Assembly (NCBI GenBank): GCA_964486045.1
Contig: CAZALK010000001.1
Location: 224,001-288,000 of the forward strand
Length of the DNA: 64,000 bases
Source of the DNA: an uncultured archaeon
GTDB lineage: Archaea; Asgardarchaeota; Lokiarchaeia; Sigyniarchaeales; SOKP01
Direction: 5' to 3'
Shown: piece by piece, positions 39,840 through 61,478 of the stretch
How the letters are laid out: each line of letters starts with the position of its first letter
Numbering within the stretch: the first letter of the stretch is position 1
Translations under genes and position numbers: made by a program
Notes under the pieces: generated by a model
Database searches by the model: none
What the model saw: only the letters and a program-made list of their open reading frames with translations
What the model was told of the DNA's origin: nothing

Positions 39840-41360
39840 ATGACGGATACAGATAAAAATCTAGAAAAATTTAGGAAAATTCTAAATGTATACAATGAAA
39901 TTAATTTAGATAAAATGGCTAAATTAATCGGTTTTAGAAACTCTATAAATTTAGAACAATGGATTCTGGATTTGCCAGAAAAATATCACACCTATTTAAC
40001 TATAAAAGGAAAAAATGTTATTATACAATCTAACATCTCAGAAATGATTGATGACCTATTAAATGAATTCGACAAATGGGATAGTAGAAAAAATGAAAAA
40101 ATCATAGAAAGAATCGATTTAAGAAAGAGCTTTTTTAGAACGAAAACAGAAACCGAATCCGTTGTTTTAGGTGATTCAAAATTAGGATCAGCAGGTAAAA
40201 AGCTTCTTAGTTTATTGCCTACACATAAAAGTATAACAAAGAATCGATTTATTAAAGTCTTTGAACTTGAAGCACTAGTAGACATTGATGAATGGCTATT
40301 AAGTCTTCCAAAAGAACTAGGTGTTTTTCTTAATGTTAAAGATAACGTCATAATGTTTGAAAAGAAAGCTTCAAGTAAGGTAAAATTAAGAATAGCAGAA
40401 CATTTTGATGATTGGATTTCAAACTTAATGAATAAACTGACAAAAGTAGATGAATCCGCTGTTAATAAAGAAATAAAAAGAATTCCAAGTATTTTAGGAG
40501 CTGGGTATCATAATTTTTTTAAAATAGATATCAAAAAGGAAAATAGAAAATCTCTAATTCTTCATATAATTGGTCATAACCAATTTACTTCAAAATCTAA
40601 ATACGGAGATAGGACTTACACTACTTTTAGAGTAAATGAAGAAGTTAAACGGAGTGTTACAGATTTCCAACCAGATATAATAGAAAAAGCAAAAAAATCT
40701 ACTGTAAAGAGGGAGATCTCTCATAGAAATGGAACCCGACACTACTATGTAAGCCCCGGAGGTAGAAACATTAGTCGTTTAATAAAAACTTCAGAAAAAG
40801 ATTTTGAAACTAGCTTAAAAAACCTCTTGATTGAAGTTATTCCTGTAAAAAATATCTCATATTCAATTATTGCCCCATCAAAAAAACAAAATATCTTAAA
40901 CGTGTCTTCACCTCGAAAAATTTGTGTTAAGTGTGGTAAAATATTTACTCCTGTAATGTGAGATGGGTGGGAGATTAAATATTTATCACTAGAAAATGTT
41001 TATATCTGTGAGGAATGTAATCCTAAACTTAAAAAAATTGTCCAGGGAGAAAATATTGAAAGATCTAATAAGGAGTTAAACATTAAAGAAACACGATCAA
41101 AAAAATCAAAGTTCAGAATCTTTTCTATATTAAATATAATACTACTTCTGGCTGTTGGATTGTCTTTACTATCCCTTTTATTCCCTATTATTATTTTTAG
41201 CATATTAGAAGTTTATTTAGTAATAAAATGGAAGTTAAAATCTAACCAACTTAAAAATTTGAAATGGGAAGAATCTGTTAGAAGAAGAGCGGTTCTGAAT
41301 AGTGTTAAACAATACGAAGGTGAATTATTAAAAAAGAAATTTATACCTGAAATCTGCTAA
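39840..41360 (+). pseudogene. N-terminal winged-helix/helix modules, Zn finger and 2 TM; split by in-frame TGA 40959-40961
   Basis: ORFs 39840..40961 and 41160..41360 are one frame; CVKC...M*DGW...CEEC spans the stop; N-terminal YNEINLDKMAKLIG...IDDLLNEFDKWD. Confidence 0.65.
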
Positions 41361-41393
41361 AATCCCAAGAAAAGCAAAAAAAATATATATTGA

Positions 41394-41456
41394 GACCAGC
41401 AAACAAACATCAAGGAAGTAGATAAGATATTACAAGAATTGAATAAAGAGAAATAG
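41394..41456 (+). pseudogene. Orphan degenerate tail-helix relic
   Basis: DQQTNIKEVDKILQELNKEK*. Confidence 0.6.
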
Positions 41457-41529
41457 AACCTAGAGAAAAAAAGAAATAGATTGTTACAAAGAATGAGTAT
41501 AATAAAAATTACAATTAAAGGTTATAATA

Positions 41530-59094: not shown

Positions 59095-59142
59095 AAATGT
59101 TTAGCATTTAATAAAGCTACTATAATATCTAAAAGAAGAAGA

Positions 59143-60627
59143 ATGGTTAAAAAAAAAACCAATTTAGACGATTTATTGAAAGAAATTAAGGATAATAGCC
59201 TCAATCTTAAAGCTGAAGAAATTGAATCTTCTGATATTTTATCAGAAGAAAATATACAATTAGAAGGAACTAAAGGAAGAATAAAAAAGTTAGAGAAAAA
59301 GGGAAAATTTTTAAAAAAAATTCAAGATATTATTGGTTGGTTGTTTCTACTTTCTATACCTGGGGGCGCTATTCCTTTTTTAATTTTACTTTTTCTTCCC
59401 GGATCTATTGGTCATAATGTGGGCTATTTATTTATGGAACAATTCTGGAATTCTCCCACTGCTGAAATATTTTGGATAAGTTTGATTATATGGGGTATAA
59501 TTGTGGTCTCATCTTTTATTTTATCTTTTATTGTTATTGTATTTGTTTATGACGAATATTCAATAGACAGGGAAAGAAGAAAATTAAATTCAGAATTAAT
59601 TAAAATAGAAAGTTCAATAGAAAGGATAAAAAGGGAATTAAAATCAGAAATAACCAAAAAAAGAGTATTAGACTTAATAGAAGAAGGAGGTATAAAGTTT
59701 AATGAGAGGGATTTTTCTAACGCGTTAAAAGTATTCGAAAGAGCACAGGAAATTTTGAGAACTTCTCCCGCCCCCCAAGAAATTCAAAATATTCTTGAGT
59801 CTAAAATAAGACTCGTTCAAGAAAATTTAAATGAGCTAAAGATAAGGGAGATTGATCCAATAATAGAACAAGGAAATCTTCTTAAAAATCAAAAATTAAA
59901 AGATAAAGCTATAGAGGTTTTCAAAAATGCACTTGAAATTACGAATAATTTATTTAAATTTCCCGAAAGGGATCAAAAAATAAAAGAAATCAAAAGTTTA
60001 ATTGATGCGATCTATTTAAATAAAATAAAAGAAATTAACGCAAAGGGAAATCAATTAAGGAATCAAAATAAATTTGATAGAGCCATTCAAACTTTTAGGA
60101 ATGCATTACAAATTACAGACAACATTTATTCATCTTCTAAGAGAAAAAAAGAAATTCAAAATATTGAAAATTTAATTAATCAGGCTTATTCTGATAAGAT
60201 AAATGAGAAAATCAAAACAGGAAATCAATTAAGAAAACAAATGAAATTCGACGAATCGATAAAAACTTTTAATAAAGGACTAAATCTCACTAAAAAAATG
60301 TATGATTCCAGGGAGAAAAATAATGAAATTAGTGAGATAAAAAGTTTAATTAATCAATCTAAAATAGCAAAAATTAAAAATACCATTTTAAACCTAGGAA
60401 CTAAGTTCGGAAGATTACATATAATGGAAATATCGGAAGAATGTGGAGAAGTTGAGAGCTTAATCATATCTACAGTAAGAGAAATGATTGAAGGTAGCGA
60501 GATCTATGCAAAATATTTTGAAAGCAGTAAATGGGTTGCTTTTGATCAACAGGCAAATATCAAAGAAATAGATAAATTAATGGAACAATATCAACAATGG
60601 GAAAAGGAAGGGATAAGTAAAAAATAA
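59143..60627 (+). CDS. 2 TM, coiled coil, TPR-like repeats and PCI-like winged helix plus helix
   Basis: Two TM segments; repeated GNQLR...FD.AI..F..AL.IT units; tail DQQANIKEIDKLMEQYQQWE. Confidence 0.85.
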   Translation: MVKKKTNLDDLLKEIKDNSLNLKAEEIESSDILSEENIQLEGTKGRIKKLEKKGKFLKKIQDIIGWLFLLSIPGGAIPFLILLFLPGSIGHNVGYLFMEQFWNSPTAEIFWISLIIWGIIVVSSFILSFIVIVFVYDEYSIDRERRKLNSELIKIESSIERIKRELKSEITKKRVLDLIEEGGIKFNERDFSNALKVFERAQEILRTSPAPQEIQNILESKIRLVQENLNELKIREIDPIIEQGNLLKNQKLKDKAIEVFKNALEITNNLFKFPERDQKIKEIKSLIDAIYLNKIKEINAKGNQLRNQNKFDRAIQTFRNALQITDNIYSSSKRKKEIQNIENLINQAYSDKINEKIKTGNQLRKQMKFDESIKTFNKGLNLTKKMYDSREKNNEISEIKSLINQSKIAKIKNTILNLGTKFGRLHIMEISEECGEVESLIISTVREMIEGSEIYAKYFESSKWVAFDQQANIKEIDKLMEQYQQWEKEGISKK

Positions 60628-60695
60628 TTATTAAAAAAAATTAATACTTTTAATTTAAGGGAAGAGAAGAAATTCACCTAATAAAATAAATTATA

Positions 60696-61478
60696 ATGTC
60701 AAAAACAAATTTTGAAAAGAGATTTCTAGCGATTAAGAATCTAGTTCAAGAAGAATTATTTTCAAACGCGAAAAATGAGTTGAACAACATTAAAGAGGAG
60801 GCTAAACTCCATAATTTGGATGAAACTCTTAAGCGGGCAAATGAAATATTAAATTTATGCGAAAAATTAGAAAAAAATATGGAACTCAAAAAAAAAATTT
60901 CCGTGATTAAAAATCTAACTCAAGAACAACTATTTTCAGAGGCTTAAAAAGAGTTAAACGACATTAAACAGGAGGCTAAACTCCATAACTTGGATGAAAT
61001 TCTTAAGCGTGTAAATGAAATATTAAATTTATGCGAAAAATTAGAAAAAAAGAAGGAGCTCAAAAAAACAATTCCCAGGATTAAAAATCTAATTCAAGAG
61101 AGGAAATTTCCCGATGCTAGTGTCGAGTTAAAAAATGTTAGAAATATTGCCAAACGATATAATTTAGACGAAATTATTAGTTGGGCTCAAAAGAATTTAG
61201 ATATATGCAATAAACATATAATTAAAAAGACAATATTAGAATTAGGAACTAAATTTACGCGTCTACAAATCGTAGAAATTTCGGAAGAATGCGATGTAAA
61301 GGATGAGAAATTAATTGTAGATATTGTAAGAGAGATGATTGATAACAAAGAAATATATGCCCAATATTTCTCTAGTACAAAATCAGTTGCGTTTAATCAA
61401 CAGGCCAATATTGATGAAATTGACAAATTAATGGCGACTTATAAAGAATGGGAAGAAAAGAAAGTTGAAAAGAAATAA
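60696..61478 (+). pseudogene. 58-aa helical repeat protein with PCI-like winged helix plus helix, split by in-frame TAA 60945-60947
   Basis: ORFs 60696..60947 and 60990..61478 share a frame; FSEA*KELN matches FSNAKNELN of the preceding repeat. Confidence 0.8.

Follow-up and report, generated by a model that had tools for sequence, protein, structure and literature searches.

We describe a 22-kb locus of an uncultured Asgard archaeon, in which a UFM1-type conjugation operon is interleaved with genes that share a C-terminal module (hereafter the tail) and differ in their N-terminal domains (heads). We propose, with a probability of roughly one half, that these tail genes form a variable repertoire of E2-recruiting receptors or adaptors for the UFM1-type cassette that encloses them. 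The locus lies in a window of 64,000 nucleotides (C1:224001-288000 of a 5.18-Mb assembly with a set of 11,416 open reading frames, ORFs), and coordinates given without a contig or locus label are positions in this window. The operon comprises seven core genes that recur across Asgard genomes, encoding a Vps22-like protein, an SPFH protein, a protein with a Zn ribbon, a UBA5-like E1, a JAMM protease, a ubiquitin-like modifier (Ubl) ending in Val-Gly, and a UFC1-like E2. Four tail genes are interleaved between the core genes, and more are found on the flanks.

The tail module and its terminal helix

The common tail is carried by six ORFs: 47344 (45968-47344, minus strand, 458 aa), which has a TPR-like helical head, and, on the plus strand, 52803 (52803-53690, 295 aa), whose head is a copy of a small GTPase with a degenerate P-loop; 54607 (54607-56142, 511 aa), in which an LRR head is followed by a helical linker; 56233 (56233-56982, 249 aa), with four predicted transmembrane (TM) segments; 59143 (59143-60627, 494 aa), with two TM segments and TPR-like repeats; and 60696 (60696-61478), a 260-codon frame with helical repeats. 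The tail spans approximately 88 aa with 50-73% pairwise identity, and comprises a PCI-type winged helix (WH) and a terminal helix with the 14-residue motif I-D-x-L-x3-[YF]-x2-W-E. Its presence in these six ORFs, noted in a preliminary description made from the DNA letters alone, was borne out by our analysis, with the last of them read as a 60696/60990 frame. That gene had been taken for a plain ORF, and while its tail is genuine, the frame is broken by a TAA codon at 60945-47. A near-identical strain has Lys in place of this stop and an intact gene of 260 aa. This sister strain differs from the window at about 11 positions over 21 kb, and there 47344 is frameshifted and 60696 intact, so that the interruptions may reflect either turnover of the genes or assembly error. 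In a comparison of locus L206 with window positions 42803-63690, tail genes account for eight of the nine coding differences and a core gene for the remaining one, a skew that is marginal at such small numbers.

A hidden Markov model (HMM) of the core tail matched, among all 11,416 ORFs, only these six and 50202 (50202-51548, plus strand, 448 aa), a protein with a SWIM-type head and a diverged tail that is a genuine, if remote, member (hhalign 95%, E 2e-8; Pfam PCI 3e-5), albeit with a degenerate helix. Diverged tails had also been proposed for 41530 and 39840; these were missed by the core HMM, carry other WH subtypes, and have only the terminal helix in common with the core tails. ORF 41530 (41530-43188, plus strand, 552 aa) contains two tandem repeats of approximately 145 aa (45% identical), an LRR region, a second WH subtype, and the helix, while 39840 (39840-40961, plus strand, 373 aa) has two N-terminal WHs of another subtype and the helix IDDLLNEFDKWD after the first of them, hence in an internal position. 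Therefore, instead of a single nine-member family, the locus holds representatives of a superfamily that is held together by the helix and includes several WH subtypes. The motif occurs ten times in the genome, nine times within this 22-kb locus, and not once in a reversed control. Two orphan tail fragments on the plus strand were absent from the preliminary description: the end of a WH with the helix, outside any intact ORF (39664-39789), and the last ~40 codons of a tail (45699-45821). We considered recent tandem duplication within this genome and rejected it, as the six tails mostly group with tails from other genomes, in a quick tree of 91 columns that is poorly resolved.

Most of the head labels assigned earlier stand: the LRR (54607, 41530) and TPR-like (47344, 59143) heads have Pfam support, TM segments are predicted in 56233 and 59143, the P-loop of 52803 is degenerate as in a dead GTPase, and 50202 has the CxC..CxH motif of SWIM proteins. 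The START-like label of 41530 was rejected, since the searches returned no match to a START fold. Across the family the heads include LRR, WD40, TPR, Ras/Roc, beta-helix, peptidase C25, LVIVD, and multi-TM types. Head swapping on a retained tail is directly visible in the slot between the E1 and JAMM genes, where a closely related linker and tail follow an LRR head in this genome, two TM segments at locus L082, and a head of helical repeats at L164. The head of 52803 is 57% identical to a host small GTPase (C10:12677), with the P-loop destroyed, and that of 50202 shares 46.5% identity with a SWIM-type gene in this genome that has no tail (C8:41195); to judge from these similarities, both heads are captured host genes. 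A mechanism of cassette insertion was considered and rejected: the gene junctions have no conserved flanking site, and no long repeats are shared apart from the tails and the LRR units.

Association of the helix with the cassette

The relatives of the tail genes come from genomes of Promethearchaeota (Loki-type Asgard archaea); the family amounts to 525 clusters at 50% identity, and we worked with an alignment of 97 tails and a wider set of 146 relatives. We surveyed 250 Asgard genomes, 20 of which encode the E2 and 230 of which do not. The genomes are kin rather than independent samples and many assemblies are fragmented, so the following counts should be regarded as strong trends and not as exact tests. 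At least two matches to the helix motif are present in 12 of the 20 E2-positive genomes (10 of 20 if two chance-looking cases are omitted), compared to 3 of the 230 E2-negative ones. In a second family, at least two matches are found in 5/7 E2-positive and 0/19 E2-negative genomes, and in the own family, tails with the terminal helix occur in 11/18 E2-positive and 6/116 E2-negative genomes; in three of the latter six, the genes lie beside operon genes at contig ends or are orthologous to genes that do. A gene with a core-type tail accompanies 21 of 68 metagenomic E2 loci, and conversely, 9 of 18 loci chosen by the tail adjoin operon genes. The intergenic slots occupied by tail genes differ between genomes, and so do the heads. 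Thus, the co-occurrence of the tail with the UFC1-like gene, anticipated in the preliminary description, is confirmed for the helix: it shows strong enrichment in genomes with the E2 and reappears within or beside the operon at many independent loci.

The element that tracks the cassette is the helix and not the WH. At least five WH subtypes encoded beside the operon end in the helix, one linked protein has the helix without an evident WH, and four paralogs of the 41530-type WH encoded elsewhere in this genome lack it. These observations bear on the possibility that the operon is simply an insertion hot spot, through which genes for WH-helix proteins spread by recombination between similar 3' ends with no functional tie to conjugation. 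The orphan fragments, tandem arrays away from the operon (in G234), and the helix genes of a few E2-negative genomes are what such hitch-hiking would leave behind. However, what is linked is a protein motif of 14 residues that recurs on several unrelated WH types and in two families and is missing from unlinked paralogs, and the junctions have no conserved flanking site, so that we regard this explanation as very improbable. Coupling of the tail genes to the cassette in some form is, in our opinion, highly probable.

The linkage also narrows the choice of partner. In four genomes (L189-L192) a long Vps22 paralog and the SPFH protein occur as a two-gene unit, with the conjugation genes absent and no helix genes at the locus. 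Vps22-like and SPFH proteins are therefore disfavored as partners of the helix, which should be sought among the Zn-ribbon protein, the E1, the JAMM protease, the modifier, and the E2. A natural fusion of the E2 with a tail was considered and rejected, as in the sole candidate (L101) the E2 part is a duplicated fragment that lies upstream of what is probably a separate start.

In genomes without the E2, the same WH is found mostly in membrane proteins, where it leads into a TIR domain. Such proteins, with a C-terminal TIR_2 domain (E 4e-15; L065:8980-10926, plus strand; L067:15817-17766, minus strand; L172-L175; L011-L014), have an extracellular beta-helix or another large head and a TM segment, in a Toll-like layout, and some of them retain the helix between the WH and TIR. 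Two further proteins, P0036 and P0041 (L161:5460-6776), have a C4HC3 zinc finger of RING/PHD-like type in place of the helix after the WH, which speaks for the receptor proposal; the annotation of P0041 as PF14446 was precomputed and was not reproduced by our Pfam scan.

A candidate partner and competing readings

In the predicted model of the tail (pLDDT 82), a three-helix WH with a wing is followed by a terminal helix of 25 residues. The helix is the best-conserved part of the tail (I70, I73, D74, L76, M77, Y/F80, W83, E84), with I70, I73, L76, M77, Y/F80, and W83 retained in 86-97 of the 97 sequences. The helix of UFL1 relies on W5, I8, L11, and F15 to bind UFC1 (PMC10702826), and that of UBA5 on L394, L397, M398, M401, and M404 (PMC8481289); both occupy one shared pocket on the back of UFC1 (PMC10702826, PMC8481289). 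The conserved positions of the tail match both sets in spacing, as the preliminary description had claimed for UFL1. According to our mapping, the equivalents of the UFC1 pocket in the E2 (58552-59094, plus strand) are V38, I45, M46, I49, R53, F61, K62, and L63; the pocket residues are largely kept, with F61 and L63 invariant. Most of the closely related E1s possess a C-terminal helix like the UFC1-binding sequence (UBS) of UBA5, and a profile of these helices places the human UBS in the top 1e-4 of windows. The spacing match, the kept pocket, and the UBS-like E1 helix make docking on the E2 our leading inference, and to judge from these comparisons the chances that the helix docks specifically on the UFC1-like E2 are about even. 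A prediction of the E2-tail complex gave no answer (score 0.03, mark 0.32) and counts neither way.

If docking occurs as we suggest, the exchangeable head, whether LRR, TPR, a membrane domain, or the captured copy of some host protein, would bind a target or sense a ligand, with the WH serving as a spacer or an oligomerization unit. The terminal amphipathic helix would dock in the backside pocket of the E2, where the C-terminal helix of the E1 should dock for charging. By replacing the E1 helix on the charged E2, it could bring E2~Ubl to the target bound by the head, and the modifier would be transferred either to this target or to the receptor, which in most cases ends in Lys-Lys. The Vps22-like and SPFH proteins may then handle tagged membrane proteins, and the JAMM protease could take the tag off again.

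The fold of the tail could also point to a different arrangement. Foldseek ranks COP9 signalosome and proteasome lid subunits (CSN3, CSN2) first, over 87-92 columns that include the helix, 70 of 97 tails match Pfam PCI, and the best PDB sequence match is again CSN3 (E 0.07). In PCI proteins the terminal helices bundle with MPN subunits. Accordingly, the tail genes could represent a proto-PCI:MPN assembly in which the WHs oligomerize, the helices at the tail ends form bundles with those at the C-terminus of the JAMM protein as in the COP9 signalosome and the proteasome lid, and the heads aim a deconjugase rather than an E2. The order of helical repeats, WH, and helix in 47344 and 59143 agrees with this, as does the constancy in the operon of the JAMM protein, with its long C-terminal extension. 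On the other hand, that extension is poorly conserved while the helix is strongly conserved, the helix is retained by WH types whose sequences do not resemble PCI, and the number of members and their heads are highly variable. Moreover, in a wide fold search the DDRGK1/UFL1 WHs (8c0d_E, Z 9.7, rmsd 8.0, 78 aligned; 8b9x_B, Z 9.7, rmsd 1.5, 63 aligned) tie with CSN3 (Z 9.9, rmsd 3.9, 89 aligned), and therefore the fold fails to discriminate a UFL1-like role from a PCI-like one. We consider the assembly rather improbable.

Membrane topology raises another issue. TM segments are predicted in about 85 of the 146 relatives, several of which have extracellular heads, and 106 of the 146 have Lys-Lys within the last six residues. 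The preliminary description regarded each member as a self-contained E3 or substrate receptor; the former fits the soluble members but is too strong because many relatives have extracellular heads, and we narrowed it to an E2-recruiting receptor. Members with extracellular heads are better read as receptors or cargo, for which self-tagging or clustering is more plausible than presentation of a substrate. In the extreme case, the helix would be a sorting signal with the Zn-ribbon protein or the Ubl as its binding partner, and the family members would be substrates, tagged at the terminal lysines and sorted by the Vps22-like and SPFH proteins, rather than parts of a ligase. The membrane proteins with extracellular heads and the Lys-Lys ends speak for such a role, and in the operon the gene for the Zn-ribbon protein is no less constant than that for the E2. 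However, soluble LRR, WD40, TPR, and dead-GTPase heads resemble binders, a zinc finger or a TIR domain can substitute for the helix, and the terminal lysines could reflect composition. We regard the role of cargo as fairly unlikely; it would partly merge with the receptor proposal if self-tagging runs through E2 docking.

It is also conceivable that the helix imitates the docking helix of the E1 and sequesters the E2 until the head senses a ligand. The tail helix resembles the tail of the operon's own E1, no catalytic or Ubl-binding element was found beside it, and UFL1 and UBA5 are known to compete for a single site on UFC1 (PMC10702826). Nonetheless, the diversity of heads is easier to explain by targeting, and in the known case the competing helix is part of the ligase; such a rheostat appears quite improbable.

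Several observations weigh against the proposal that the tail genes recruit the E2. The best fold matches, COP9 and lid PCI subunits, use their terminal helices to bundle with MPN proteins and not with E2s, and extracellular heads cannot present a cytoplasmic substrate. Scored against the profile of the E1 helices, the tail helices get no higher than the top 13-17% among windows that share their hydrophobic pattern, with ranks of 55-399 out of 4,634 C-termini, and the UFL1 helix itself scores below zero. In sequence terms, the likeness of the tail helix to E2-binding helices is thus modest, little above that of a generic amphipathic helix. Finally, the co-occurrence has exceptions on both sides, in addition to the relatedness of the genomes mentioned above. 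Operons without a nearby helix gene are found in G249, G003, G160, and G181, hence the cassette does not require a linked member, and helix genes are retained in the E2-negative genomes G147 (100% complete, 10 contigs) and G225.

The operon and its relation to known systems

The first core gene (47805-49199; this and the other core genes are on the plus strand) encodes a long paralog of ESCRT-II Vps22/SNF8, with an N-terminal WH, a helical bundle, and two C-terminal WHs (E 3e-5). We considered it as a UFL1/DDRGK1 homolog and rejected this, since both sequence and fold lead to Vps22/SNF8. It is followed by the SPFH/Band-7 gene (49253-50116) and, after 50202, by a gene of unassigned family with a C-terminal Zn ribbon (51594-52676), for which an atlas search returned nothing usable. 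The E1 (53660-54553, true start probably near 53726) matches UBA5 (E 2e-47) better than MoeB (2e-31), its catalytic Cys region aligns, and its C-terminus forms a UBS-like helix (EIDDLIDKLK). For the E2, every PDB profile match below E 1e-3 is UFC1 (best 4.6e-6) and C137 is invariant, although the Pfam UFC1 match (1.6e-4) is under the curated cut-off. The modifier (58289-58555, 88 aa) has an invariant Val-Gly end and only a weak match to UFM1 (E 0.81), so that we call it UFM1-like by context.

The JAMM/MPN+ protease (57039-58250) has 403 aa when read from an ATA codon at 57039, right after GGTGA (57026-57041), while a start at the ATG at 57249 would cost the catalytic Glu; ATA, ATC, or ATT is found likewise in L082, L086, L094, L096, L098, and L105, and ATG in other loci, so non-AUG initiation is possible. 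In ten loci (L045, L048, L080, L101, L105, L109, L113, L114, L118, and L136) the modifier and the E2 share one stop-free frame, possibly a Ubl-E2 fusion that the JAMM protease would need to cleave. Decayed E2 fragments in G065 and G329 (L076, L188) show the operon in the course of loss. Near-identical tail and E2 genes in bins labeled Patescibacteria or Chlamydiota (L152, L156, L157) probably come from misbinned Asgard contigs.

The variable island that carries the tail genes also holds a HerA-like ATPase (37679-39700), a DUF2441 gene (44318-45007), and a tail-less LRR gene (61524-62567). Short duplicated stretches, 81-97% identical, lie at both of its ends (44164-44287/45391-45514, 47394-47487/63759-63852, 45193-45340/63173-63281, 62770-62845) and are signs of local rearrangement. 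Small GTPase genes follow the island (63795-64000 and beyond) and adjoin tail genes in L101 and L167. A PADLOC scan for known defense systems gave only generic E1/JAB matches.

Among characterized systems, the closest analogy is the UFL1-DDRGK1 (UFBP1) scaffold E3. Like it, the tail genes have a winged-helix body and lack RING, HECT, and RBR domains (no RING or HECT gene was found in the window, in line with the preliminary description, which had seen none in the cluster), their terminal amphipathic helix has the same spacing of key residues, with the near-background score noted above, they sit with UBA5-, UFC1-, and UFM1-like proteins, and some members are membrane-anchored like DDRGK1. They differ in having one WH per member (two in 39840) and no tandem WH array completed across two partners, a helix at the C-terminus, many paralogs with swappable heads versus one fixed complex, and a JAMM protease in place of the UFSP proteases. 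The Pfam families of UFL1 and DDRGK gave no match to the members in the window at E up to 0.1-1, nor are they among the 25 families listed for the 97 tails. Thus, if the docking holds, the tail family would work by the helix mechanism of UFL1 while standing outside the UFL1/DDRGK1 family. With the UBS of UBA5, which has a clear counterpart in the operon E1, the tail shares a C-terminal helix with hydrophobic residues at i, i+3, i+4, i+7, and i+10, but it has aromatics at i+7 and i+10 and a basic extension, and the likeness is modest over the amphipathic background.

PCI subunits of the COP9 signalosome, the proteasome lid, and eIF3 (PF01399) share the helical repeats, WH, and C-terminal helix, and an MPN/JAMM protein is present in the operon. 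The six core tails and 50202 have a PCI-type WH followed by a helix, preceded by helical repeats in 47344, 59143, 60696, and 54607. Unlike these subunits, the tail genes vary in heads and copy number, with no sign of a fixed six-plus-two complex. F-box, SOCS-box, and BTB receptors are comparable in that a small constant docking module is combined with variable LRR, WD40, or TPR heads and has been expanded and shuffled; this is only an analogy, as the folds are unrelated and the locus has no cullin, RING, or Skp1/Elongin partner (the F-box and cullin-RING Pfam families gave no matches in it).

UFC1 has been reported as restricted to eukaryotes (PMC10183829), and PCI/HTH domains of Asgard multidomain proteins have been mentioned in passing (PMC10936438). 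Part of a published account lists Ufm1-like proteins in nine Asgard clades and, within that part, describes no operon, UFC1, or receptor family (PMC12962969). Our literature search, to which most subscription papers were out of reach, found no description of an archaeal UFC1 operon or of this tail.

It is tempting to view these genes as an Asgard receptor family with a fixed grammar, in which a variable sensor, in some cases a membrane segment, and a WH are followed by an interchangeable output (an E2-docking helix, a TIR domain, or a RING-like finger). The branch with the helix would then be an expandable ligase repertoire for a UFM1-type tag that works without RING domains, captures host genes as bait (the dead GTPase and the SWIM protein), shows a turnover like that of immune receptors, and prefigures the way in which the UFL1 helix acts on UFC1. 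We offer this picture tentatively and consider it somewhat unlikely in its entirety. Asgard Ufm1 became known only recently, and without partners, and to our knowledge, eukaryotic UFMylation has a single ligase. With an operon that is compact and includes candidate targeting factors of its own, small soluble proteins would suffice to test how a RING-free ligase arose, and also whether UFM1-type tagging formerly used many substrate receptors and was linked to ESCRT-II-like membrane sorting. The 14-residue motif, which predicts membership, could serve to compile receptor candidates from genomes across the Asgard archaea.

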